From the NCBI GenBank assembly GCA_030141605.1, contig JAQGDQ010001225.1, positions 1 to 53,861 on the forward strand: a stretch of 53,861 bases of DNA, given 5' to 3'. This DNA comes from Tubiluchus corallicola (taxonomy: Eukaryota; Animalia; Priapulida). Numbering within the stretch: the stretch's first letter is position 1; the number at the start of each line of letters is the position of its first letter. Below, piece after piece: positions 15,890 to 53,861 of this stretch. Made by a program: the position numbers and the translations under genes. The notes below the pieces were generated by a model. It had not been told where the DNA came from, made no database searches, and worked only from the letters and a program-made list of their open reading frames with translations.

Positions 15890-17208
15890 ATGCAAGCCGT
15901 CAGTTGCTTGCGGTCCAATCATCATAGCAACACGGTACGCAAGCTGTGAGTTGCTTGTGGTCCAATCATCATAGCAACACGGTACGCAAGCTGTCTGCTT
16001 GCGGTCCAATCATCATAGCAACACGGTACGCAAGCTGTCTGCTTGCGGTCCAATCATCATAGCAACACGGTACGCAAGCTGTCTGCTTGCGGTCCTATCA
16101 TCATAGCAACACGGTACGCAAGCCGTCAGTTGCTTGCGTTCCAATCATCATTGCAACACGGTACGCAAGCTGTGAGTTGCTTGTGGTCCAATCATCATAG
16201 CAACACGGTACGCAAGCTGTCTGCTTGCGGTCCAATCATCATAGCAACACGGTACGCAAGCTGTCAGTTGCTTGCGGTCCAATCATCATAGCAACACGGT
16301 ACGCAAGCTGTCTGCTTGCGGTCCAATCATCATAGCAACACGGTACGCAAGCTGTCTGCTTGCGGTCCAATCATCATAGCAACACGGTACGCAAGCCGTC
16401 TGCTTGCGGTCCAATCATCATAGCAACACGGTACGCAAGCTGTCTGCTTGCGGTCCAATCATCATAGCAACACGGTACGCAAGCTGTCTGCTTGCGGTCC
16501 AATCATCATAGCAACACGGTACGCAAGCCGTCAGTTGCTTGCGTTCCAATCATCATAGCAACACGGTACGCAAGCTGTCTGCTTGCGGTCCAATCATCAT
16601 AGCAACACGGTACGCAAGCTGTCTGCTTGCGGTCCAATCATCATAGCAACACGGTACGCAAGCCGTCAGTTGCTTGCGTTCCAATCATCATAGCAACACG
16701 GTACGCAAGCTGTCTGCTTGCGGTCCTATCATCATAGCAACACGGTACGCAAGCCGTCAGTTGCTTGCGTTCCAATCATCATTGCAACACGGTACGCAAG
16801 CCGTCAGTTGCTTGCGTTCCAATCATCATAGCAACACGGTACGCAAGCTGTCTGCTTGCGGTCCAATCATCATAGCAACACGGTACGCAAGCCGTCAGTT
16901 GCTTGCGTTCCAATCATCATAGCAACACGGTACGCAAGCTGTCTGCTTGCGGTCCTATCATCATAGCAACACGGTACGCAAGCCGTCAGTTGCTTGCGTT
17001 CCAATCATCATTGCAACACGGTACGCAAGCCGTCAGTTGCTTGCGGTCCAATCATCATAGCAACACGGTACGCAAGCCGTCAGTTGCTTGCGTTCCAATC
17101 ATCATAGCAACACGGTACGCAAGCCGTCAGTTGCTTGCGTCCAATCATCATAGCAACACGGTACGCAAGCCGTCAGTTGCTTGCATTCCAATCATCATAG
17201 CTACACGG
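15890..17208. repeat. Minisatellite, 44/47-bp units, roughly 29 copies
   Basis: GCTTGCG(G/T)TCCAATCATCATAGCAACACGGTACGCAAGC followed by TGTCT or CGTCAGTT. Confidence 0.98.
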
Positions 17209-17414
17209 TGGGTCAAGCGTGATGCACCCTGGTGTAAGCCAGAATGTAGGTCCATGTAAGTTTTTGGAGCTTATTATCTACTTCAGTATAATTACGATTT
17301 GCATTATCACATTATAAATCAAATATAATTACAATAATTGTAACAAACTTATATTAATATGCTGTTGTGTGATATAGTTAGAGAAAAAATGCAAATATAA
17401 CAAAAATTGTAAAA

Positions 17415-17887
17415 CAGGGGTGTGCAAATTATCTGACTAGCCGGGCCACATTAAACTTTCCCGCAATTCATGCGGGCCACAGGCAGTTTGATCAAGGAGC
17501 CAAGTACAGAAAGGCCTAATAATGATTTTTTTGCATCAGACCTGCGTACATCATCACTACTACACCCAAGAAACTATTTTAGAAGTTATTAAAATTTATA
17601 TTACAAACCATATATTTCTACTTTCAGGACAGATAGTGGTAATTTCATTACAATGCATATTAGTAATGTGTATCACACGGTCTGTGTAGTACAGTGACAT
17701 TAAGCTACAACCGTCTTGTAAGGGTTAATGGCATCCGATCTAGTAGAAAAAACTACCCGCACTATCTTTGGGATCGTGGCACGGACTTCAGCTGGATACA
17801 CTCAATTAACCGCACTTTCATTAGGTTGACAAATCTCTTCGCGTGCCGCACAAATTCTCTCGGCGGGCCGCAATTTGCACACACCTG
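17415..17887 (+). mobile_element. hAT (Buster/Charlie-like) MITE, copy 1
   Basis: TIR CAGGGGTGTGCAAATT...AATTTGCACACACCTG; 8-bp TSD TTGTAAAA on both sides. Confidence 0.93.
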
Positions 17888-19591
17888 TTGTAAAAGAACT
17901 ATAGTAATATAGTTTACTAAACAACATAATAGTTTATCAACAGGAAAAAATGCTGCCTGGTGTTTAAGAAGCAAAACTGAAAAGTAGGAAAAATAGAAAA
18001 AGATAAAGTAATAGAATAAGATAACGCATACATTTCAATGTAGTACAGCTTCACAGCTTACATCTACAACATTGACTAATCACCAAATTCACCACTTGCT
18101 TCGTAATGAGCTGTTTCATTTTTCTTTGTATCTAGTATTTCTTTGTGAGGCACTAAATAGTCAGTCTTTTCAAACGTTTAACTTTTTTGACTTGATTATG
18201 TCAACACTATAGATATTTATTATTTTCTTTTGTAAGTTTTATTACCGAGCTGGAATTACGTATTTATGAAACTTGCTGTCCTACTTTCGTTCATTTACAT
18301 AATATTTGGCTAAATTTGGTAAACTTTAGCACAGCTGTAGGATTGATACCCTTGCAATAATCAGTGTTCTTTGTTTTTAGAAAAATCAAGGTTTAAAATA
18401 GTTTTTATTGATAATCGTATCAGCTAATAATGGATAACTATTAACAGTTAAAAGCTATCAGATGACACATACCATCCTGTGTGAAAAAATTTGGAGGTGA
18501 GTCTAGCAAGTCTGTCGACTTCGTATATCGTTAGAAGTAAACTTGCCAATGTGACAGAGCTGGTCTGATCACCAAGCAAAGTAAGGTACGTGTATTTCCC
18601 GTGTTGCAAGAAAGCAAGTAGAGGGTGTAGTGTAAACTTTTGCATTTTGCGCATGTGACAGAGATGGTCTAATCACCAAACAAAGTAAGGCGCATGCATT
18701 TCCCGTGTTGCAAGAAAGTGAGTATAAATTGGTGTCTACAATTATACTACCACATGCGGTATTTATAGGGTTTGAAAAGATATACAAAATGAAGGTTTGA
18801 AGGTTTGTGTGTTTACCACACTCTCAAAAGAAACATGTCCTCAACTCCAAGTTAGGGCAATCAAACAGATGGAAAACACAAACATTTAGTAGCCATTTTG
18901 GATGCATAAATGATCACTTCAGGGTGGCATAAATCATCGGGTAGCTTTTCAATGTTAATAGTAAAATGCCAATAAGTTTTTTTTCATTTCTTTGCAACTC
19001 TGATGTTTAAACTCAAACCTCTTTATGCATTGAATGAGAATTTCTCTGACATTGATGTAAGTGCACAAAATTGGCACTACTAGAGTTGAACCAACTGCAA
19101 GTGATCACATGCCAAGGCAGCACTTTTCAATTTATTGCAAAGAATAAAACAGATAGTAATGTTCAATATACAAATAATGCACTAATCATGGCAGTAAGAA
19201 TATAGCTAGAAATGATGTATGTTATTTACATTGTTTAGATGTAAAATAAAAGCCTATTTTTGTAGAGAAAACGACGTTTTCTGAATTTTTCACATATGGC
19301 CATTTTTTGTAGTGCAAGGTGCTGCACATGTACCAAGCTGATTTGATTTTTTAAAAAATCCGTGTGACAGATAAAAATATTTTTGCTATTAGTAATTAAT
19401 TACTATAGTAACTGCTATTATAGTAATTACTATAGTCATTAATATGAAAAAGTCAAATGATTAATGGTTAACCTCGCAATTATTCACACACTTTAAAGAT
19501 GTCTGTCTGTCTCTTACAACAGACGACCATCACGATTATAAGCCCCCATGTAAAGAGTTGAGTCATTGGTGAAACGTAAGTTGACCTAGAT

Positions 19592-20051
19592 CAGGGGTGT
19601 GCAAATTATCTGACTAGCCAGGCCACATTAAACTTTCCCACAATTCCTGTGGGCCACAAGCAGTTTGATCAAGGAGCCAAGTACAGAAAGGCCTAATAAC
19701 GATATTTTTGTATCCGACCTGCGTACATCATTATTACTACACTCAAGAAACTATTTTAGAAGTTACTAAAATTTATATTACAAACCATATATTTCTACTT
19801 TCAGGACAGATAGTGGTAATTTCATTACAATGCATATTAGTAATGTGTATCACACAGTCTGTGTAGTACAGTGACATTAAGCTACAACCGTCTTGTAAGG
19901 GTTAATGGCATCCAATCTAGTAGAAAAAACTACCTGCACTATCTTTGGGATCGTGGCATGGACTTCAGCTGGATACACTCAATTAATCACCCGGGCCGCA
20001 CTTTCATTAGGTTGACAAATCTCTTCGCGGGCCGTAATTTGCACACCCCTG
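19592..20051 (+). mobile_element. hAT MITE, copy 2
   Basis: Same TIRs and internal sequence; TSD ACCTAGAT. Confidence 0.95.
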
Positions 20052-21755
20052 ACCTAGATGCTTAATTTACAACGATTTACGATGTTTGAGGTTCAACCAA
20101 CCAGCAAATCATTCGAATTGAAAACATTTTAACGGGCACGTATTGTATCGTTGCTTTCTTGTTACGTATGCCGAAACACGTGGAAGAAAATGTGGATGTT
20201 AATGGATTTTGAGTGGACGGTTGTTCGTCGCAAAAATGTTGTCAGTGCGGGTGGATTTATCGAGTGTTCTCTCTTACAATTGAAAACCAACAATAGCATG
20301 CCCTGTTGAGAACATACAATTAGGATAAATAATTATAACTAGGGGTGACCATTCTCTACTAGAAAACGTATTCGAATCAAGTTTGTGACTTTTGAATTCG
20401 AATCAAGTTTGTGACTTTTGAATTCTAATCAATCCGAACTTCGGTATTTGGAAATCGAAATGAGACTGAAAGATCTTCGAACCACCAACAAAAATTAGTC
20501 TTACAAAGGTCATGCATGTTAAAAGAATCTGTTCTGCAGTAAATCTACTGATAGTTTGTTAAAAAATTGTGCACAGAAATAACAGCTAAATTATACTAAC
20601 TGCTTGGTGTTTCAAATGTTTTAATGATAAAGAAGGTATGTGGTTAAAGTGCTGAATTAATCGAATCTATAGTTTTAGGTTTGCTAATAACTGCAAGTTA
20701 GGAAGATGTTAAGGAATAAGAAATCTGGTCAACAAACGTGATAAAAATCATCGTACCTGTGTTTATAAATACTCAATGCATTTTGTATGTTGACCGATAT
20801 ACATAATGCGTATTTAACTACTTTTTACTTAGTTAACAGAAAATGACTTGAAACAAATACAAACCAATTGAGAAAATTTTCATCATATATACAAATACAA
20901 AGAAAATTTTTATCGTATATACACAAAATAATAACTATTTAATCAATAACAAATATAGAAATGATACAACTCAATAACTGAAGTGAGACGACAGAATTAG
21001 TCCTCCCAATCAGGCCTACGTGAGTTACACAGCTGCATGTGTTACACGTATACCGAGAAAGTGCCAGGTTTACTGTAACCGGCTGTAGGTGGCAGCACCA
21101 TAAAGCAAAAAATTCTACAATTGAGATAAGACTACTAAGTCTTTCTAGTAGATAAGTACTATACTGAATTGTAGATGGCAGCACCACATTTTAGGTTTTC
21201 TATTAAGCGAAAGCGACAAAAAATCAAACTGCACCAATGAAATGTATTTGTGCTTAACCAAGTTAAATCCGTGACAACATATCTGAGAGCTTTTGTAATT
21301 TCTAGGAAGAAATTAAATACACTTACAATGTATTAAATGTAATTAAATAATAAAAATAATGTAACTCAGTAGTGGTGTTGCAAATCTCAAACTTAATCCA
21401 TTGAAAATTCTTGATGGTCACCATGTAAGAAATTAATATGTTGTTACCCCTAAACAAGCCTTTATCTCATGATCAATAATCAATAGTGGATCAATAATCG
21501 CTTGTCCAAAGGAAAAAATACGATGACATCTTTTCCTCTACTATACCCCCCCCAAATTCGACCAAAATTCAATCATTGTCACTGCAAAATAAAACGCCTT
21601 GCCTACATCGATAAAAGTTTTCATTGCTAATTCACCAATGTAAATAAACCAATGACTTCTAATCTGTGATCGTTGTCAGAAGAATGAAAATGTCATCCAC
21701 AGGCAGATCTCTGGCAGCAATCAATACCAATAAATCTATAATTATTGCTCTGTGA

Positions 21756-21840
21756 TCAGTCATCGTCGTCAGATGAACTAAAGACATCATCTATCGGTAA
21801 TCCCTTCTCTCTTCGGTTTGCAATCACTTTTGCTGCCAAA
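21756..21840 (-). CDS. CENP-U-like protein, terminal coding exon (LAAKVIANRREKGLPIDDVFSSSDDDD*)
   Basis: ttttttcag acceptor in matching phase, TGA stop. The eight exons sum to 2517 nt, 838 aa plus stop. Confidence 0.75.
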
Positions 21841-23439: not shown

Positions 23440-23549
23440 TTCAACTTTCTCCTATGCAGGAGAAGCATTTCCTGTCGGATCACATTGTTTCGACGTCTCG
23501 TTTTCCTGATGTCGGCTCTAACTTTCTTCAAGGCTAAAATTTCCTGGAT
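23440..23549 (-). CDS. CENP-U-like protein, coding exon 7 (IQEILALKKVRADIRKTRRRNNVIRQEMLLLHRRKL)
   Basis: tttttag acceptor, gtaggt donor; coiled-coil-like; phases 0/2. Confidence 0.8.
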
Positions 23550-23691: not shown

Positions 23692-23770
23692 CTTTTCATG
23701 GAGGAGAAATTTGACTTCGGACAAGTAAATTTTGAGAGCTCTCCTTTCCGTCCGACCAGTAACTTCAGAT
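23692..23770 (-). CDS. CENP-U-like protein, coding exon 6 (SEVTGRTERRALKIYLSEVKFLLHEK)
   Basis: ttcgcag acceptor, AAG|gtaag donor; amphipathic helix; phases 2/0. Confidence 0.8.
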
Positions 23771-23922: not shown

Positions 23923-24031
23923 CTGAGTTCAGTGCATATATCCTCAATCATGTGCAGTACAACGTCTAGATCTAGCGCCTCCTTGGCGTGCCTTCTCTCT
24001 GAAGGGCAGTACAAATCTAGCGTCTCAAGAC
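23923..24031 (-). CDS. CENP-U-like protein, coding exon 5 (LETLDLYCPSERRHAKEALDLDVVLHMIEDICTEL)
   Basis: AG/GTAAG boundaries, phases 1/2. Resembles, from memory, the start of the conserved CENP-U domain (W/Y-C-P...L-D/N-V/I-V-L). Confidence 0.75.
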
Positions 24032-24110
24032 CTAATAGCAAAAGTGAAAACTAGTCACTAATAGAAATGCAAACATTCTCACAGTACAGTAACTACGGCA
24101 CTATATAGAG

Positions 24111-24611
24111 CAGGGGTGTGCAAATTATCTGAGTAGCCGGGCCACATTAAACTTTCCCGCAATTCCTGTGGGTCGCAGGCAGTTTGATCAAGGAGCCAAG
24201 TACAGAAAGGCCTAATAACGACTTTTTTTGCATCCGACCTGCGTACATCATTACTACTACACTCAAGAAACTATTTTAGAAGTTATTAAAATTTATATTA
24301 CAAACCATATATTTCTACTTTCAGGACAGATAGTGGTAATTTCATTACAATGCATATTAGTAATGTGTATCACACAGTCTGTGTAGTACAGTGACATTAA
24401 GCTACAACCGTCTTGTAAGGGTTAATGGCATCCGATCTAGTAGAAAAAACTACCCGCACTATATTTGGGATCGTGGCACGGACTTCAGCTGGATACACTC
24501 AATTCATCGCCCGGGCCGCACTTTTATTAGGTTGACAAATCTCTTCGCGGGCCACACAAATTCTCTTGGCAGGCCGCAAGTGGCCCGCGGGCCACAACTT
24601 GCACACCCCTG
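24111..24611 (+). mobile_element. hAT MITE, copy 3 (intronic in the CENP-U-like gene)
   Basis: Same family; TSD ATATAGAG. Confidence 0.95.
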
Positions 24612-25674
24612 ATATAGAGTCATCCCCTCCACATCAAAATAGTCGTTAGCATAGTGATTCCTCAGGACAATTCCGCCTTGGAGAAGATCAGCTTTGCTTT
24701 GTAACGTTTAAACGCTTTTAATCAACAATGTAGGATAGAAACCTCATTGGAAAATGGAAGTTTCTTATGCATCAACATTCAAGCATCTGCTTGACAGAAA
24801 CGTGGCAAATCTGACTATTGCATCACTATAAGCAAACTATTATTTGCTTATATTATTATTTATTATTATTATTTACAGAAAGACAAGAGGATTTTTTATA
24901 CACTACCCCATTTTCAATAGGATAAAAAGTATACACTGTAGAACCTATAATACTGCAAAAGCATTTCTGATACTTAAATAACAATTAAAGTCTTAATTAA
25001 CGACGGGCGAGCCCAACTGCGATGACATCACAAACGAACAAAATTTTCGACAACAAAAACATTCTACGAGCGTGTTGCACGTGTTTGTGGAAGCAAAGGT
25101 TAAAATACAGCGCTACTGTAATAGATTCAGTGTGTTGTACTAAAACTCGCCAACTTTTAAGATAAAATTCAAATTCCAATTTACCGCTGTGTTCGTCACG
25201 CATGAGCTGTCGAAGGTGTGCAGTACGTCACAAACGAACACCCATGAATTGAGACGTACAGCACCTGTTTCTGGTAATTAAATAATATCTCAACTCCGTC
25301 AGGACCGTCAGAGTTTGGTGCATTTTTTTATTTTATCCAATTAAATCACTTATAAATGTTTAAATAAATAGAATGATTGTACAGCTGAGATTTTTCTGAA
25401 AAGAACAGTACCAATTTTTGTAATCGTTTAGTTATGTCTGTTCTCATACAGTAGCAGAAATGTCATATGTCTTGTAAGACCCATTTTGAGTGGTGCAGTC
25501 CTGAAAGAGTTAAAAGCTTAGTTAATGACCACAAAGCCCGACTAGTGGTGATATCATAAGTGAACATAATTTTCAACAGCAAACAATTCCACCCTCGCGT
25601 TGAACATGTTTGCAAAAGCAAAAAACTTCTAAATATATTTATTTTTGAATCAGTTGTGAAAAGGCACTACTTAC

Positions 25675-26339
25675 AAATTGGATCACCGTCGTGTGCTGCA
25701 ACCTGGTGTCGTAAACTTTCACCGGAAGGACTCGCACCGCTGCCAGCTTTTGAACTCGAAGTTGCACCCGCCTCTTCACTTGAATCTTCACCGGATCTCC
25801 ATCTCTTTGTTTGGAACTCTGGCCTCTTTTCACTTGTAGTTTCCGGAAAAGCAACCGCTTGTGTTGTGTTGACATCACCGTCACCATCAGCACTTGCAGT
25901 AGCACCTCCTTCATCCGTGGAAAGATTATCAGGAACCGGAAGAGTAACGTTACCGCTTGCTGCTCTGCTGTGTGCCACCCCTTCTTCTTGACTTGATGTA
26001 GGACCTTCAGAATCCGCAGTAGAATCCTCGTCCCGACTCGTGGTGGCCGGTTGATCGGAATCCGAAACGTTTTTGTCGCCACTGGGACCTCTGGCACCAA
26101 AAGAACCGAGAGAAGTTGGCGCCACCGATGCCGAAGCATCGTTTACGACACGTTTTTGATAACCTGGATGCGTCCGCCTCCTCGTCGCTGTTACTCTTCC
26201 GTCGGAGTCCGGATGGTTCCGGGATTGCGGCAGCACTCTAGGCGTGGATGTGATGAGAGGCTGTGGCATCCTTGCTCCGTCAGTTGTGGGAAGAGGTGTC
26301 ACTGTGCTGGTCAGGAGACTGCTGGCACTTGTTGATGAC
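25675..26339 (-). CDS. CENP-U-like protein, coding exon 4 (acidic S/T/G-rich low-complexity region)
   Basis: ctttcag acceptor, T|gtaagt donor; phases 2/1; matches the 211-aa ORF. Confidence 0.85.
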
Positions 26340-26614
26340 CTGAAAGACGTCCTGTCAAATTAAAAGAACTGACGCATTTCCACTGTGGACGAAATTTGAA
26401 GAAACTGAGAAAAAAATTGAGCAGCGAAAAAATTATCATAAATATCATATTATATTGTCAATTTATTTTGAATGTAAACAACAACAAAACTCAATTTAGT
26501 ACATCACTCTAACCAGAATAACCGCGATCGGAACTCTCCTGCAACCAAATGACAAACTTCACAGGATAAATTAGGAATGAATATTTTCTTGTATAAATAT
26601 TATAAATATATGTC

Positions 26615-27009: not shown

Positions 27010-28241
27010 TGTCTGTTTTGCAAAAATGTTGACTGTGAAATCTGCAGCTGCTCCAGATCCGGTCGTGGAGAATTCCTTGGAATTTGTTTAGGTACTGCTC
27101 GGCTCTTCTTAGACTGTTTAGATGAGAGTCTTCCCCGCTTGGCTGCCGGTTCGATGCTCACGTGTTGGTAGTTGCCGGCAGTCCGACGTCGACTTGACGA
27201 AGAAGCTGAGACGACAGATTTATGATGTTTGACCGATGTCCCTGTGTCAGACATGAATGTTTTAAATTCAGACGTGGGCTTTGGTCTACGGGGAGATGAC
27301 CGCGATGGTTGCCCTTTCATGCGAGCTGGACTTGACGAGGGTAGGGATGACTCAACTGCCCGCATCGATGCACTGGGTCGTTCCGGAGATGGTTCCTCGC
27401 CATGGTCCTTCTCTCTAGACGACGCAGTAAGTTGAACTGCAGATGTTTGCGGCTCGGCACGTCTAGGAGATGACCTCAATTGCTGCACCTCCCCCGGGTC
27501 TACGCTGCTCGAAGACACAGGTGGGTAAGAACGTCTCGTCGCATGCAACTTAGAATGTCTTGTGGAAGACTGAAGCTGATGCACTTCACCATGGTCCGCA
27601 TCAGAAGGTGCGGGCGGCAAAAATGCGGACGCAAGTGATCCAGGTCGCCTCGGAGAAGACCTCACAGGTCGTTCATAACTCGGAGACGACTGTGAGATAA
27701 AATTCCTAGCAGGAGACTTTCCGCGGGAAGAACTATTCCGTAAGATGTCCCTAGGATTTTTCTTTAATGGAGACTTCGCAAGAGAAGGCTTACTGGTTTT
27801 TTCCATTTGATGGAATTTACTGTTGACAAAAGATTTCCGTGCCGTTTGTTTAACCGAGGGCACAGATGTCGTCTTGGTAGAAGATTTCACTCCGGATTCA
27901 GCAGGAGAACTTTGTTTCTTAGGAGAAAGTTTCCGCTGGCTCCCTCGAGTGGTCGCTCTTGGAATGAACGACTTACGAGCCGTCTGCTTTGCTGCTGGCT
28001 TCTCAGTACCAAGACTTGTAACTGATGAATTAGCAACGGGTTGAATGTTGGTCACATGTGCACTAGCAACAGGTTGAATGTTGGTCACATGTGCAGCAGC
28101 AACAGAATCTTCTGACAGGACTACGGACGAAAGATCGGGAGGAAACGGTCGACCGACTTGTTTACGACGAGGAGTACTTGTTCCTGGAATAACCCGAGAC
28201 GACTGATGCTTTCCGGGCAAATTTTTCTTTTTACTACCAAC
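27010..28241 (-). CDS. CENP-U-like protein, coding exon 3 (1232 nt; S/R/K/P-rich disordered region with two KQTARKS motifs)
   Basis: Long GC-richer ORF bounded by ttatcag acceptor and CA|gtaagt donor; phases 0/2. Confidence 0.85.
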
Positions 28242-29753: not shown

Positions 29754-29901
29754 CTTAGCAACAGCTGGTGCCTGTGACAACGATGCACCAGCATCCGAAA
29801 CACGTGAACTGTTGCTAGCATCTGCGCCAGCACCACCTGACGGATTCGCATCGGTACCATCGGTTTCAAACACCCACGGTCTTAGCGTGACTTTTCTTTT
29901 C
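29754..29901 (-). CDS. CENP-U-like protein, coding exon 2
   Basis: ttctag acceptor, AAG|gtaacc donor; KRKVTLRPWVFETDG...APAVAK; phases 2/0 are consistent. Confidence 0.75.
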
Positions 29902-31166: not shown

Positions 31167-31609
31167 CTTTCCCGCAATTCCTGCAGGCCACATGCAGTTT
31201 GATCAAGGAGCCAAGTACAGAAAGGCCTAATAACGATTTTTTTGCATCCGACTTGCGTACATCATTACTACTACACTCAAGAAACTATTTTAGAAGTTAT
31301 TAAAATTTATATTACAAACCATATATTTCTACTTTCAGGACAGATAGTGGTAATTTCATTACAATGAGTATTAGTAACGTGTATCACACAGTCTGTGTAG
31401 TACAGTGACATTTAGCTACAACCGTCTTGTAAGGGTTAACGGCATCCGATCTAGTAGAAAAAACTACCCGCACTATCTTTGGGATCGTGGCACGGACTTT
31501 TCAGCTGGATACACTCAATTAATCGCCCGGGCCGCACTTTCATTAGGTTGACAAATCTCTTCGCGGGCTGCAAAAATTCTCTCGGCGGGCCGCAATTTGC
31601 ACACCCCTG
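31167..31609 (+). mobile_element. hAT MITE, copy 4 (left end missing)
   Basis: Internal sequence and right TIR match the other copies; the left ~40 bp and its TSD are absent. Confidence 0.9.
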
Positions 31610-31960
31610 TTATAAATCAAGTTTTCCTGGTTTGCCCCAAAACATGAATTTGAACGCGAATGCGTCACCCGGCATAACCATAGCATTCGAAGACTTATTG
31701 TTCAGTAAAAGTATAAAACACAAGAGGAAAAGTTAGAAAATAAACAAGCTTAATAGAAATGCAGATTGTAGTGACTCGTAACATGATAGACTGACTCATG
31801 CTGGACGGATGGAGTGAAAATGATTTCCTCCATTGACAGCTCCCATCCAAATTACTTGTTTCAGTATCAATTACACATTGGTTTACCTTTTCACTGCTTT
31901 ACCAATGTGTAGGTTGCAATGTTAAACATAAGCACATGTATAAAAACAAATTGCACTCAC

Positions 31961-32049
31961 GAATATCGCAAGCCTTCAACTTTAGTAGATCTCTGTGGCC
32001 AAATCACCAGTTTTGAGGATTGCTTATTCTGTCGTTTTCTGTTACTCAT
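31961..32049 (-). CDS. CENP-U-like protein, coding exon 1 (MSNRKRQNKQSSKLVIWPQRSTKVEGLRY)
   Basis: ATG shortly after a ttttag acceptor; gtgagt donor in phase 2 matches the next exon. Confidence 0.7.
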
Positions 32050-39354: not shown

Positions 39355-42300
39355 CTAACTTCGGAACAAACTCAAACGCTTGACCATGTCCAAGTCAGCA
39401 AGGAGTTTACGCAACGACTGTTTCAAATACGGAGAAGTAGATGGACCTCCCGGCTTCTCCTCGCCATACCCGTCCTCCTCTGAACTCTCCAGGACAGAAA
39501 TCTGATGCTCAATGAAGTCCAGCCGGGAGCTGACCTCGTTCTGTTCTTCACTCACGTGGTCAAGCAAGTTCATGATACTTTGGTACGGCTGCGTTTCTTT
39601 TTCTCCCGACTTCACCTCCTCTTTTGTGTTGCTACACGATTGTTCAGTATTCTCATTAGCATTTACATCAGCCCAATCACCAACTCGGTTATCTTCGGGC
39701 ATTCTGTTCTCATTCAACTCAGTTTCGCTGCTGGCGTGTGTACCAAAAGGCATGACATCACACGCACTCTGCAAATCAGGTCCTGTTGTCGAATGCACAT
39801 TATCATCACCTGCAGCTATTGGTTTAATTGGACTACCAACATCTGTTATTTGCACGTCACTACTAGCAATTGTGGTGCTCGTGTTGTTCGTTGATGAATG
39901 TGGGTCTTTGCAAGTGCCAGCCGAGGGCGTGGATTCATTTGAGGTTACAGGCTGCGTGATGTCCTCAAATTCACTGATGTGCCTCTCATCGGATAAATGC
40001 AGTTCACTAGCAATAGGCTTATCTAAAGGTTTAGTATCATCTACAGTTTCTAACTGCTGCACCTTATCAAATTCTTTGCTGCAATCATTTTCTTCCAATC
40101 CATTTTCACTCAAATCAAAATGCTTGGACTGCGGGAGCTCACGCTCGTGCTGTACTGAATCGCCATTAGGGTGGTCAGAAGACGCACAGTCAGAAGTGAC
40201 AGCAGAGTTACCTGGCAGAACTCCCGAAAATGAAACATGAGATGCATTCACAGAAGCTGGGATAAACATATCTGTCTGTCGGCTTTGGATTTCAGATGAT
40301 GCGCAAATGTTATCATTGTGGTGATTTAGCACAAGTGAATCTGGTTTTTCTTTTGGAAGTGCCAAAAAGTCAACTGTATCTTGCTGCGGGACACAGGAAG
40401 CACCAATCTGGGAAACACTAGAAATTCGAGGCATTCTTCCAGTATAGCAATGATCGTAGTGGCCATACGGATCACCTCCTGCACCGTTTGCATTGACGCA
40501 GAGAGAATCCGCACTGCCAGGTGTGGGAGGCAGTTGCCCGTCTCTCACCCACGGCTTTTTAAACAAGGTCAAATCGGGGTTATCCTCAGACGTGGCCAGT
40601 TTTATCTTTCGCCAAAGATGACTGATGACCGTTCGCACCTGCGTCAGATCAGAACTGAGGTTGTGTATGACAAGGGATCTTTTCGCCCGACTCTCAACTG
40701 TATCAGATTCTGGAATGAAATTAAAAGCTGGCAGTTTGCCAGTTTCAAACCACGTCTGATCGTGCCTGTATTTTCCACGAAGCCTCAAACCCTTTGGACT
40801 TCTGCACATGGGACAAGTATACGTACTCGGTATGCTATCATCCGTACACCCCACACACTCGGCGTGCTGCCAGCAGAAACATTTCTCGCACTGAATCATC
40901 AAACCATTTTCATTGACAGAATTACAAACGCAGCTGATGGTTCCGTTTTTGGCAAGCTCAAATTTTTCGTCGTCATTTTCCGTTGACTCTAGCATATCCT
41001 GCGACAATTCATCTAAACCGAAAATAACAGTATCCGAGGAGCTGTCGCACTCCGGAGTGGTCTTTTCTTCAACACTTACCACAACATTATTCACAAGGTT
41101 CTTATCATCCGGTATTACAGAAACACTTTCTGTCATCTGCGCATCAAGAGACTTGAGCTCGACATTTTTTCCCGGTGTAGAATTTATGTCATCACTGACA
41201 TTTTTACGTTTTTCGTGTTTCTTCTTTGTCTCAGATTTCTTCGCTGCAATTGCTGGATTGTGATATAAACGACCATGTTTTGACACGCTTCTACCATGGT
41301 CGGCCACAACATTTGACAATGCACCATCACCACCAGGTGACTTAGCCAGTTCGAAATTAATGACAGCAGACTTTTTACTGTAAAACTTACTGACAGATGA
41401 TGATGATGATGCTTCCGCTGCAGCTGCGCTAGCAGATTCTTCACTTGATTTGGCAGCATTTACTACAATTTTTGGAACTGTAATCAATTCCTGCTTCACG
41501 CTAACATGTTTCTCATTTATCTTTTTCGTTTTGGCCAGTTGCGACTCAACAGGGTCTTCGTGTAGATGAACCGATGTTTGTTTCAACGAATGCTTCCGTG
41601 CCGTGAGACGCCACTTTTTGCGTGACTTGTGAGACGGACTTACGGGAGGCGACTTTTCCACGCCAACAGAAATGTCCGAATCAGTAGAGCAAATAGAAAC
41701 CGTCTTCTTCCTTTGCACCGATGTTGCAACATCGTCGTCATCATCATCAACATTTTTCTTGTCCTTGTTAGCTTGCACGAGCGCTTGCTGTTTGTTTGTT
41801 GTTGTTACTTCAGGTGCAGGAAAATCTTTCTTTTGTGTGGCACTCTTGGAAGACAACTGTTTCTTCTTCTTCTTCTGCGGTGAAACAATTCTTCTAGCGC
41901 GGTCCGGGTGATAATATTTAACGTGATATGCCAACAGACTCTCTTTTCGAAAACTTTTGTTACAATCCTTGACTTTGCACTTGTACTGGTTGTGGTCTTC
42001 TTCGATAATGAGTTCTTTCGGTGCAGGTGTATTCCAAGGAATGTATTCAAGCTGATAACCTCTGCCCGCTTCAGCCGGCTGATTTCTTGTCCGATCTTTT
42101 GGCGCGTGAGACAAATGTGAAGCAGATTTCTTACGATCTCTCTGTGCACCGGAATGTTGCGTTAGAGACGACTGCGCAGCTAGCACGCGAGCGCTCGGAT
42201 GTCGTTTTCTAGTGCCTTGTATGGGAGTCTGCAAACTAAGATGTCTCGTTCTGACTCCCTGTGATGTTAATTGGTTGCTAGGACGTCTAATCCGAACAGC

Positions 42301-43500
42301 GGCACTTGATGCAGTCTCCCTCTGAGCCATCACTACCAAATCTGAGTCAGACTTTCGTGTGACAGGTCTATGAGAAGGCGCTTTGCTACCATCACTAGCA
42401 ACTGGTGCCACTTTAGCCGGAGAGTTTAACTCTAATTTTTCAGTGCTAGTTCCGTGCAAAGGCACATGGTTGCCATGGCCAACTTTTGTAGGAGCAGCTG
42501 CTTGATGCATCCCGTTTGACTCTGCTGTTAATTTTTGTGATGATTCAGCTGGTGCAGCAGCCTCCGTATCGTTTGCTTCTATCTTGACCACTACGTCCAT
42601 TGAAAGAGAAGTCGAGTCCTCTAATGAGTCTGAATGTTTTGCTTCCACAGAAGAAACTTTAGTGGTTTCTGCCAAGTTATTATCTGAAGTTGCAAATGAG
42701 TTCTGTTCTTTGTCGTTTCCTTCCGTCGGATGCTTCACTTCACCTTTTCCTTCTGCGACACTTTTTGAAGCGCTGCCTTGCTTAATCTCTTTTTTATCGG
42801 GCATTTCCTTTTCTTCTTTAACCGCAGCTTGTTTCGCCTTTTTCTCCACATTTTTTTCTAGTTCTTTTCTACCTGACATGGTAGGCTGATGACCATCATG
42901 GTCTGTTTGAGAACTTTCTTCAACAGTTTCTACCAAACATTTCACTTCACATTCTTTTGCGTCGCTCGAGTTGACCCGCGCATCAGCGTTATTAGCCGAG
43001 TGGCGCTTCTTGTCAAAAAGCGAAAGGCGTGGCCTTTTCACTTGCGGCCGGGGCGGACTCAATTCCATATCGGACACGCGTCGTTTTTCGCCCTTGTGAG
43101 AATCCGTTTCCTTCGATGTTGACCGAGGAACTTCATCGTGTACCAAAGGCGATATGTTTGACGCATTTACAACTGTGCTGATGCCGTCGTAGAAAGCGAC
43201 TTTATACGAACACCCGCCTGCCGTCGCCGTAACCTTCGCAGGGTATTTCTTTCCGTTTTTCCACTTTGCCAACACCTCGCTGCCGACTTTGTATCGCGCA
43301 GGCTTCTTTTGCGCATCGCGTCTCTGCGAGCTTCGAGGAATGGGTCGTATTCTGTCGCTGTCAGAATCCAACCACTCGTCGAAGCGGGCACTCCATCGTT
43401 CAAAGTGAATCAGAATCCTTCGCTTAGAATCATCAACTTCGAGTATCTTAGCCGTGTACCATTTGTTCCAGTCGTCGCGAGCTTCGATGCGGTTTCCAAC
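39355..43500 (-). CDS. PHF20: PHF20/PHF20L1-like protein, main exon (Tudor1, Tudor2, C2H2 zinc finger, PHD finger, C-terminal helices)
   Basis: Exon starts at the gttttag acceptor: VGNRIEARDDWNKWYTAKI...LIHFERWSARFDEW (Tudor1); VLAKW..YPAKV..VAFYDG (Tudor2); CKVKDCNKSFRKESLLAYHVKYYH (C2H2); CVC...MIQCEKCFCWQHAEC...CPMC (PHD). Confidence 0.95.
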   Translation of the reverse strand, partial: VGNRIEARDDWNKWYTAKILEVDDSKRRILIHFERWSARFDEWLDSDSDRIRPIPRSSQRRDAQKKPARYKVGSEVLAKWKNGKKYPAKVTATAGGCSYKVAFYDGISTVVNASNISPLVHDEVPRSTSKETDSHKGEKRRVSDMELSPPRPQVKRPRLSLFDKKRHSANNADARVNSSDAKECEVKCLVETVEESSQTDHDGHQPTMSGRKELEKNVEKKAKQAAVKEEKEMPDKKEIKQGSASKSVAEGKGEVKHPTEGNDKEQNSFATSDNNLAETTKVSSVEAKHSDSLEDSTSLSMDVVVKIEANDTEAAAPAESSQKLTAESNGMHQAAAPTKVGHGNHVPLHGTSTEKLELNSPAKVAPVASDGSKAPSHRPVTRKSDSDLVVMAQRETASSAAVRIRRPSNQLTSQGVRTRHLSLQTPIQGTRKRHPSARVLAAQSSLTQHSGAQRDRKKSASHLSHAPKDRTRNQPAEAGRGYQLEYIPWNTPAPKELIIEEDHNQYKCKVKDCNKSFRKESLLAYHVKYYHPDRARRIVSPQKKKKKQLSSKSATQKKDFPAPEVTTTNKQQALVQANKDKKNVDDDDDDVATSVQRKKTVSICSTDSDISVGVEKSPPVSPSHKSRKKWRLTARKHSLKQTSVHLHEDPVESQLAKTKKINEKHVSVKQELITVPKIVVNAAKSSEESASAAAAEASSSSSVSKFYSKKSAVINFELAKSPGGDGALSNVVADHGRSVSKHGRLYHNPAIAAKKSETKKKHEKRKNVSDDINSTPGKNVELKSLDAQMTESVSVIPDDKNLVNNVVVSVEEKTTPECDSSSDTVIFGLDELSQDMLESTENDDEKFELAKNGTISCVCNSVNENGLMIQCEKCFCWQHAECVGCTDDSIPSTYTCPMCRSPKGLRLRGKYRHDQTWFETGKLPAFNFIPESDTVESRAKRSLVIHNLSSDLTQVRTVISHLWRKIKLATSEDNPDLTLFKKPWVRDGQLPPTPGSADSLCVNANGAGGDPYGHYDHCYTGRMPRISSVSQIGASCVPQQDTVDFLALPKEKPDSLVLNHHNDNICASSEIQSRQTDMFIPASVNASHVSFSGVLPGNSAVTSDCASSDHPNGDSVQHERELPQSKHFDLSENGLEENDCSKEFDKVQQLETVDDTKPLDKPIASELHLSDERHISEFEDITQPVTSNESTPSAGTCKDPHSSTNNTSTTIASSDVQITDVGSPIKPIAAGDDNVHSTTGPDLQSACDVMPFGTHASSETELNENRMPEDNRVGDWADVNANENTEQSCSNTKEEVKSGEKETQPYQSIMNLLDHVSEEQNEVSSRLDFIEHQISVLESSEEDGYGEEKPGGPSTSPYLKQSLRKLLADLDMVKRLSLFRS

Positions 43501-52547: not shown

Positions 52548-53861
52548 TTAAGTGACAGATCTTATATGATAATGAAGTAGCTCTTCATCTGAAAGGGCAG
52601 ATGGGGCGCCACTCATTGAACACTTCCCATCCACGGTTTTAGGAAATGCGATCACGTCCCTTATTGACTTGCAACCACATATGATGGCTATCAATCGGTC
52701 TAAACCTAAAGCAATCCCACCGTGAGGTGGACACCCCAACTCCAGCGCCTCTAAAAGGTGGCTCATTTGCGCCGAGTCAATTTTCAAAACAGAATCAAGA
52801 ATATATCTTTGCAGATCAGCATCATGAATGCGGATTGACCCACCTCCGATTTCCTGTCCATTTAAAACAAGATCGTAGTGCTGCCCCCTAGCCTTAACAT
52901 TTTTGCTATATACAAGATGGAGGTCTTTGGGAAGAGGTGCTGTAAATGGATGATGTCCAGTCTCTAAACACCCTTCTGGCCCATCAGCAGGAAAAAATAA
53001 CGGAAAATCGGTAATCCACGAAAAGTTGAATGAATTGTTGTCTATAAATACATCACTTATCTGTCGCAACTTATCCAAGCATGTGAGCCTTATCTTGCCA
53101 AGGAAGCTACAAGCATTAAAAGTATCGCCCACTGACAACAGCAGTATGTCTCCGGGTTTGGCTTCTAACTTCACATTTGCTGCCATCTGTTGTTCGCCCG
53201 AGAAAGCAGCTTGCAAAGACGACTGCCAGTTCAAATCATCATCAACTTTTATCACAAAGAAGTGCTTGACAGGAAACTCATCCTTCAAAGTAGAAGCTAG
53301 TTTGTCTAGTTCTCGCTTTGAGAAATACTCGCTACCTTGTTTAATGTTTAATGCATGTGCAGCATGGTTCTGCACAACATTAGATGAATTTAAACCGTCA
53401 GTCAAGCTGTGTATTCGCATGTTAAAGCGAGTGTCTGGTTTATCAGTGCCATACGAACCAATTGCCTCTTCATATGTCATTCTATTAAAAGGTATTTCGA
53501 TGGGTTTCAGATGCGAAGGCCAGGCGTATTTTAACATTTCTTCCACAAGTTGCAAGATGTCGTTCTGTGACACAAAGGACATCTCAATGTCAACTTGTGT
53601 GAATTCAGGCTGGCGATCAGGACGAGCGCCTTCGTCACGGTAACAGCGAGCAATCTGCATGTACCGATCCATTCCACCCACCATCAAAAGTTGTTTGAAT
53701 TGTTGTGGACTTTGCGGCAGGGAGTAAAACTTCCCAGGATGCTCTGTTGGAACAAGGAACTCCCGAGCGCCTCCCGGAGTCCTTCTGAATAAAGTTGGTG
53801 TCTCTATGTCAACGAACCTATGAATAGTGCACAAGAATTCGCGCAATTTCATTGTCATGTC
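52548..53861 (-). CDS. DARS2: Mitochondrial aspartyl-tRNA synthetase (5' part lies outside the window)
   Basis: FVDIETPTL..TPGGAREFLVP, SLPQSPQQFKQLLMVGG, ARCYRDE..RPDRQPEFTQ (motif 2), GAD insert, HHPFTAP, PPHGGIALGLDRL (motif 3), IRDVIAFPK: a bacterial-type AspRS in a eukaryotic nuclear context. Confidence 0.96.
   Translation of the reverse strand, partial: DMTMKLREFLCTIHRFVDIETPTLFRRTPGGAREFLVPTEHPGKFYSLPQSPQQFKQLLMVGGMDRYMQIARCYRDEGARPDRQPEFTQVDIEMSFVSQNDILQLVEEMLKYAWPSHLKPIEIPFNRMTYEEAIGSYGTDKPDTRFNMRIHSLTDGLNSSNVVQNHAAHALNIKQGSEYFSKRELDKLASTLKDEFPVKHFFVIKVDDDLNWQSSLQAAFSGEQQMAANVKLEAKPGDILLLSVGDTFNACSFLGKIRLTCLDKLRQISDVFIDNNSFNFSWITDFPLFFPADGPEGCLETGHHPFTAPLPKDLHLVYSKNVKARGQHYDLVLNGQEIGGGSIRIHDADLQRYILDSVLKIDSAQMSHLLEALELGCPPHGGIALGLDRLIAIICGCKSIRDVIAFPKTVDGKCSMSGAPSALSDEELLHYHIRSVT

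Follow-up and report, generated by a model that had tools for sequence, protein, structure and literature searches.

Histone H3K9 mimicry outside histone H3 is well documented. The sites methylated by G9a/GLP include K185/K239 of G9a itself, K205 of GLP, K16 of ATF7IP, K126 of LIG1, WIZ and K26 of histone H1.4 (PMC2175347, PMC9768651, PMC6172828, PMC10020546, PMC3325965; excerpts in each case); the mimics of G9a, GLP and ATF7IP read ARKTM (PMC2175347), and that of LIG1 is a TARK sequence (PMC10020546). According to the excerpted parts of PMC8541646, G9a reads TARKS, requiring Arg before the lysine and favouring Ala before this Arg, and prefers a hydrophilic and then a hydrophobic residue after the lysine (section 3.1). 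HP1gamma binds methylated ARKS/T in non-H3 proteins with a strict requirement for Ala at position -2 (PMC3325965, excerpt), and phosphorylation by Aurora B beside a G9a/GLP mimic blocks HP1 (PMC9768651, excerpt). Human Nup107 carries a TARK sequence at K25 that is methylated by G9a/GLP in vitro (PMC6172828, excerpt), and this TARK is also present in the kinetochore orthologue set of PMC5579357.

The tail of the inner-kinetochore protein CENP-U carries described motifs of other kinds, namely a cohesin-binding FDF motif (PMC11182772), the human Plk1 sites T78/T98, of which T98 lies in a Ser-Thr-Pro site (PMC7837267), FACT binding and the fungal Mtw1 motif, as given in the excerpted parts of these sources. 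The N-terminal motif of yeast Ame1 binds the Mis12/Mtw1 complex (PMC4137059; bioRxiv 10.1101/2025.06.03.657598; both in part), and the excerpt of PMC4137059 describes it as clearly conserved in fungi only. The chromatin of the centromere core is without H3K9 methylation, yet cohesion and segregation depend on HP1 and on pericentromeric heterochromatin (PMC9768651, excerpt). Within a literature search that left most subscription papers outside its scope and included part of PMC12647219, no H3 mimic was found in CENP-U or in another CCAN subunit. H3K9 mimicry is already established; what would be new here is its setting in a predicted inner-kinetochore (CCAN) subunit.

In this study, a stretch of 53,861 nucleotides from the priapulid Tubiluchus corallicola, referred to as the window, was analysed. 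The original prediction had placed two KQTARKS peptides in the third exon of a CENP-U-like gene, and the minus strand does translate so at both 27969-27989 and 27831-27851; these coordinates cover the seven KQTARKS residues, whereas the flanks quoted with them lie outside. In their sequence contexts the two copies read AAKQTARKSFIP and VKQTARKSFVN. The identity of KQTARKS with H3 residues 4-10, also claimed beforehand, is exact when compared with the H3 peptide printed in the excerpt of PMC2175347. An eighth residue, F, is common to both copies, where H3 has T, and the motifs are therefore given here as octamers.

27966..27989, minus strand: H3K9-like motif copy 1, KQTARKSF, residues 164-171, with K169 at the K9 position and S170 at the S10 position
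27828..27851, minus strand: H3K9-like motif copy 2, KQTARKSF, residues 210-217, with K215 at the K9-like and S216 at the S10-like position

Copy 2 follows 46 residues after copy 1, and these two are the only TARK or QTAR readings in all six frames of the window. Each of them has the ARK(S/T) core that an H3K9 mimic requires, Arg standing at -1 and Ala at -2. The tail around them, judged by composition only, is rich in S, P, R and K, with 8-12 hydrophobic residues per 60.

The gene in which the motifs lie was modelled with eight exons, GT-AG introns and matching phases, and is predicted to encode 842 residues plus a stop codon, in place of the 838 residues put forward earlier.

31961..32049, minus strand: exon 1 (predicted), ATG at 32049, GT donor, frame-consistent; its end encodes the first part of the Ame1-like motif
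29754..29901, minus strand: exon 2 (predicted), AG/GT ends, GC 0.53; 29868-29901 completes the N-terminal motif
27010..28241, minus strand: exon 3 (predicted), 1232 nt, a 418-codon open frame; basic, Ser/Pro-rich low-complexity tail with both H3-like motifs
25675..26351, minus strand: exon 4 (predicted), Ser/Thr-rich, then an acidic linker
23923..24031, minus strand: exon 5 (predicted), core of the CENP-U domain; Pfam PF13097 match
23692..23770, minus strand: exon 6 (predicted), helical part of the CENP-U domain; frame-consistent, no Pfam match of its own
23440..23549, minus strand: exon 7 (predicted), start of the coiled coil; frame-consistent, no Pfam match of its own
21756..21840, minus strand: last exon (predicted, exon 8), 28 residues, acidic tail, TGA; in place of the longer C-terminal coiled coil of orthologues

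This predicted splicing is frame-consistent and leaves the motifs in exon 3, as had been proposed. The GC content of exon 3 is 0.50, compared with 0.29 and 0.26 in the flanking introns; over the model as a whole, the exons range from 0.39 to 0.53 and the introns from 0.26 to 0.38. The frame is lost when exon 3, exon 4 or the two together are skipped; it survives only the joint skipping of exons 2 and 3, an event that would truncate the N-terminal motif. A contig of run X1 has a 1-base insertion after position 26373, just outside exon 4; the exon 4 acceptor at 26351 fits this contig, because the insertion then falls within the modelled intron 3. In-frame stops led to the rejection of an alternative acceptor at 26404 and of a possible exon at 25490, and the pyrimidine tracts of the seven in-frame AGs within exon 4 are poor. 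The predicted 3' UTR holds, at 21661-21712 on the minus strand, a frameshifted and decayed copy of the last exon's end.

The suggestion that the host is CENP-U-like was upheld by a Pfam match and by a likeness seen by eye at the N-terminus. When the exons were scanned one by one, one of the eight matched CENP-U: exon 5 reached 22.1 bits against PF13097 (cut-off 21, E 1.6e-4, model positions 96-125 of 181), and the other seven exons, scanned singly, gave no CENP-U match. Exons 5-7 align by eye to Saccoglossus CENP-U without gaps. Residues 27-41 (31961-31971 and 29868-29901, minus strand) form a basic and aromatic stretch that, by eye only, resembles the N-termini of CENP-U from Saccoglossus, Nematostella, Salpingoeca and yeast, which suggests that the CENP-U route to Mis12 may survive in invertebrates. 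Exon 3 would thus sit between two CENP-U hallmarks, since the N-terminal motif lies in exons 1-2 and the CENP-U domain in exons 5-7. The C-terminus is about 60 residues short, with 28 residues after the exon 7/8 junction against approximately 87 in Saccoglossus CENP-U, and no exon fitting the missing C-terminal helices was found downstream within the window. The host is accordingly called a shortened CENP-U homologue rather than a canonical member, because the full C-terminal coiled coil and terminal helices are lacking; it is predicted to be a C-terminally shortened CENP-U homologue. Homologue searches returned no relative for exon 3 among 7978 candidates scored (proteins of 719-2050 aa), for the motif region among 47 candidates (225-718 aa) or for the exon 5 reading among nine candidates (77-2000 aa). 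Searches of the ESM Atlas yielded no usable relative, and PDB sequence searches no match. The sole HMMER match, a medaka repeat protein obtained among representatives with exon 5 as the query, was rejected as spurious.

The remainder of the window holds several further features. Upstream of the CENP-U-like gene, 39358-43500 on the minus strand is a 1381-codon open frame, one very large exon with MBT, Tudor, C2H2 and PHD matches, which we take to be PHF20-like. An aspartyl-tRNA synthetase-type frame with a GAD domain, presumably of the mitochondrial type, occupies 52551-53861 on the minus strand and is cut by the end of the window. At 15892-17209 there is a minisatellite of about 29 copies of 44-47-base units, GC-rich relative to its surroundings. 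An element of about 450 bases with inverted ends occurs at approximately 17410-17880, 19590-20050, 24110-24610 and 31180-31610; two of its copies lie in introns 1 and 4 of the CENP-U-like gene, it is high-copy in run X1, and it is likely to be a non-autonomous DNA transposon. Within the CENP-U-like protein, residues 13-17 (31999-32013, minus strand) presumably fit a PP1-docking pattern of the RVxF type.

The two octamers were compared at the level of DNA. Seven of the eight codons differ between the copies, every difference being at a third position and synonymous, so that not one amino acid has changed. When seven changes were placed at random in a neutral simulation, only synonymous ones resulted in 10 of 2,000,000 trials. 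Only one codon in eight is identical between the copies, compared with 3.0 expected under independent codon choice, and the flanking DNA is 24-33% alike, which is background; the flanks are unrelated. This synonymous divergence and the unrelated flanks indicate that the copies are old or independent and that the peptide, rather than the DNA, has been kept. When exon 3 was shuffled 200,000 times, a single KQTARKS came up three times and a pair never; a repeated 8-mer of any kind arose in 10 of 20,000 shuffles. A single KQTARKS is not rare proteome-wide (about 0.27 expected per 20,000 proteins of this composition). A metagenome scan for DNA coding for KQTA(R/S)KSF, with Ser restricted to TCN codons, found 79 loci, each with a single in-frame-coded match; none had two ARKS in the frame and none was a recognised CENP-U. 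Two of the 79 (L007:879-902 and L022:1471-1494) look like the beginnings of histone H3 genes; their frame ends right after the ARKS codons, probably at an intron. The signal is the motif pair together with its synonymous divergence, and not a single copy. The view that selection acts on the peptide, already voiced in the original prediction, is therefore judged likely: with seven synonymous and no non-synonymous codon differences and 10 in 2,000,000 neutral trials, the two KQTARKSF motifs have likely been kept by selection.

Other parts of the tail behave differently or in parallel. Run X1 is DNA, as its contigs cross intron borders, and exon 4 differs from its X1 contig by seven non-synonymous and three synonymous changes (40 of 50 rows listed), which indicates that the tail drifts in general. 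Over the stretch of exons 4-8, run X2 covers repeats only. A recent 33-base tandem duplication at 28031-28105 in exon 3 has produced an 11-residue repeat. The tail also holds many [ST]P-x-[KR] sites and the following repeated motifs, whose functions are putative.

27285..27662, minus strand: three RSSPRR repeats at residues 273, 335 and 393, putative CDK1/Polo-box-type sites (consensus from the excerpt of PMC7837267)
28167..28181, minus strand: TSTPR copy 1 at residue 100, Ser-Thr-Pro, putatively of the Plk1-docking type
26237-26251, minus strand: TSTPR copy 2 at residue 524, putatively of the same kind

The RSSPRR repeats have diverged at synonymous positions only, and repeated kinase sites appear to be a habit of the tail, because these three copies in exon 3 show the same synonymous pattern as the octamers.

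Kinetochore orthologues from PMC5579357 (supplementary file 3; 22 CenpU entries from 20 species, together with every TARK in the set) were used to look for related motifs. Of 45 TARK sequences, eight are in CENP-A, all as K-x-TARK, and 37 are elsewhere; among these 37, K-x-TARK occurs four times, three of them in CENP-U and the fourth in Phytophthora Cep57. The CENP-U motifs are KKTARKDL in Xenopus tropicalis and two copies in Salpingoeca rosetta, KMTARKSI and KVTARKGV. All three have a hydrophobic residue two places past the lysine, as do both copies in the window; the lysine side is kept in all three and the serine in one. TARK is missing from CENP-U in 18 of the 20 species, including human, mouse, fugu, zebrafish, Saccoglossus, Nematostella and ten fungi. 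CENP-U makes up about 0.33% of the residues of the set, with lengths counted by eye. Counted per species, two of three K-x-TARK occurrences fall in CENP-U (P ~3e-5, or 3e-3 at a tenfold composition bias), with a pattern that was picked after seeing the data and a count that misses motifs split by line breaks. For plain TARK the corresponding P value is 0.007, becoming 0.05-0.12 at a three- to fivefold bias and 0.34 at a tenfold bias; with such bias taken into account, the enrichment is weak. The original prediction knew of no such feature in vertebrate CENP-U; in this set that holds for human, mouse, fugu and zebrafish, which are without TARK, and fails for Xenopus. Since Xenopus CENP-U carries a related K-x-TARK, the feature is not wholly absent from vertebrates, and the motif would either be ancestral and often lost or have arisen more than once.

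The reading that we favour, tentatively and at somewhat short of an even chance, is that the KQTARKSF pair is an H3K9 mimic: G9a/GLP would methylate it, HP1-type chromodomains would recognise it and Aurora B would turn it off. Here the host would be anchored at the kinetochore through its CENP-U domain, and a probably disordered tail would display both motifs. Enzymes of the G9a/GLP type would methylate K169 and K215; HP1-type chromodomains would bind the methylated sites, and an HP1 dimer could do so bivalently across the 46-residue spacing. In mitosis Aurora B would probably release HP1 by phosphorylating S170 and S216. The likely outcome would be that the inner kinetochore is tethered to pericentromeric heterochromatin or, alternatively, that H3K9me-like docking sites are supplied at CENP-A chromatin, which is without H3K9 methylation; the tether would persist through interphase, and mitosis would release or retune it. 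A methyl-lysine mimic with a phosphorylation off-switch is favoured because the preferences of G9a and HP1gamma fit the octamer, whereas the Aurora consensus fails at -3 and leaves K-Q-T-A unexplained. In particular, KQTARKSF would suit G9a better than H3 itself does, as S-F matches the preference for a hydrophilic and then a hydrophobic residue and the S-T of H3 does so less; an F in this place, next to the serine, speaks for the preferences of G9a/GLP and Aurora more than for a plain copy of H3.

That all eight residues are constrained while the synonymous sites are saturated counts for the mimic, as would the recurrence of K-x-TARK with a hydrophobic residue at +2 in Salpingoeca and Xenopus CENP-U and the in vitro methylation by G9a/GLP of human Nup107, whose TARK stands in the same orthologue set. 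Against it count the RSSPRR repeats with the same synonymous pattern, and on the comparative side the Xenopus motif and the second Salpingoeca motif, which are without the S/T of the HP1 consensus, and the motif-less CENP-U of 18 of 20 species would tell in the same direction. The short C-terminus, in so far as it bears on incorporation into the kinetochore, would also weigh against it. Furthermore, 8230 human proteins bear a loose G9a motif (PMC10611923), and K187 of H1.2 is methylated by G9a yet unbound by HP1 (PMC8541646, excerpt), both of which speak against the mimic.

A broader and doubtful proposal is that a module mimicking H3K9 in the CENP-U tail predates animals and persists in a choanoflagellate, a frog and the present invertebrate, mammals and fishes having lost it. 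The inner kinetochore would then display its own H3K9me/S10ph switch at CENP-A chromatin and recruit HP1 and, via HP1, the passenger complex or cohesion factors, thereby coupling kinetochore to heterochromatin without histones.

Among the alternatives, the one that survives best, although we consider it improbable, is that the motifs are Aurora B sites in a basic DNA- or microtubule-binding tail, whose charge would be switched in mitosis through S170/S216 and neighbouring CDK1 sites; the likeness to H3 would then come from sharing the kinase of H3S10, with no methyl-lysine reader. The Aurora B consensus, [RK]-[RK]-x-[ST]-hydrophobic in the excerpt of PMC4607871, agrees with R-K-S-F in the basic Arg at -2 and the hydrophobic Phe at +1, the tail is rich in [ST]P-x-[KR] sites with RSSPRR and TSTPR repeated, and in human CENP-U the N-terminus is known as a kinase hub (PMC7837267, excerpt). 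However, the same consensus favours a basic amino acid at -3, a position that Ala occupies in both copies, as at H3S10. The identical K-Q-T-A of the two copies would be left unexplained, and of the three motifs that the PMC5579357 set has in other CENP-U proteins, two are without serine.

Still less likely is it that the motifs imitate the H3 tail in its unmodified form and are bound by a protein that handles histones, for instance the FACT chaperone or an H3 importin, serving its recruitment to the centromere or nuclear import of the host. The exact seven-residue match exceeds the ARK(S/T) core of the G9a, GLP and ATF7IP mimics, and Importin4 and Kap123 are reported to bind the H3 tail. The excerpt of PMC11912937 can be cited on both sides: CENP-OPQUR depends on the N-terminal tails of human CENP-Q/U to bind FACT, but human CENP-U does so without any TARK. 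The F at +2 in both copies also departs from H3 toward the preference of G9a.

Less probable again is a repurposed CENP-U paralogue or remnant off the kinetochore that has lost its C-terminal coiled coil and acts as an H3-tail decoy or scaffold elsewhere in chromatin or in the germ line. The 28 residues past the exon 7/8 junction, compared with about 87 in Saccoglossus, and the failure to find an exon for the missing helices downstream in the window agree with it, but the scan could have missed a last exon, and the Ame1-like N-terminal motif and the putative Plk1-type sites appear to be kept, as in kinetochore CENP-U.

Lastly, a functionless H3-like heptamer, of chance origin in a tail rich in K/R/S/T/A and then duplicated locally, is very improbable and largely refuted: single matches do arise at proteome scale and in metagenomes (the 79 loci), and local copying does happen in exon 3, because a recent 33-base tandem duplication lies there, but seven synonymous and no non-synonymous differences in 24 bases, between unrelated flanks, are at odds with it.

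If the mimic reading is true, an H3K9/S10-like switch in the inner kinetochore would be a direct, histone-free link between kinetochore and heterochromatin, and histone mimicry would reach beyond chromatin enzymes into the kinetochore. With the motif in Xenopus, egg extracts would offer a test of the idea. Antibodies against H3K9me and H3S10ph might also recognise the peptide, and centromere staining in such species could then be misleading.

The locus can finally be compared with the known systems. It shares with mimics of the G9a/GLP type a non-H3 ARK core and an Aurora B-accessible Ser/Thr at +1, and with G9a, GLP and ATF7IP (ARKTM) a hydrophobic residue at +2. Those proteins are chromatin enzymes, cofactors or replication proteins with demonstrated methylation; here the host is a predicted subunit of the inner kinetochore, seven H3 residues are matched, and two identical copies stand 46 residues apart. 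Nup107, which has a kinetochore role in mitosis, is similar in its TARK near the N-terminus and in its place in the kinetochore orthologue set. It differs in being a nucleoporin, in having a single copy and in lacking a serine behind the lysine, and the excerpt of PMC6172828 gives no function for its mark. With CENP-U/Ame1/Mis17 the host shares the domain core, a long basic low-complexity N-terminus and Ser-Thr-Pro sites, and its basic-aromatic N-terminal motif resembles by eye the Mis12/Mtw1-binding motif of Ame1; in contrast, it is about twice the length of human CENP-U (842 versus 418 residues), its C-terminus is some 60 residues short relative to orthologues and it bears two heptamers identical to H3. 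The N-terminal tails of Salpingoeca and Xenopus CENP-U likewise carry K-x-TARK and, at +2, a hydrophobic residue, and the Salpingoeca protein also has two copies after the N-terminal motif together with TP sites; they differ in that the serine is found in only one of their three motifs and that none has Q at the position of H3 Q5.
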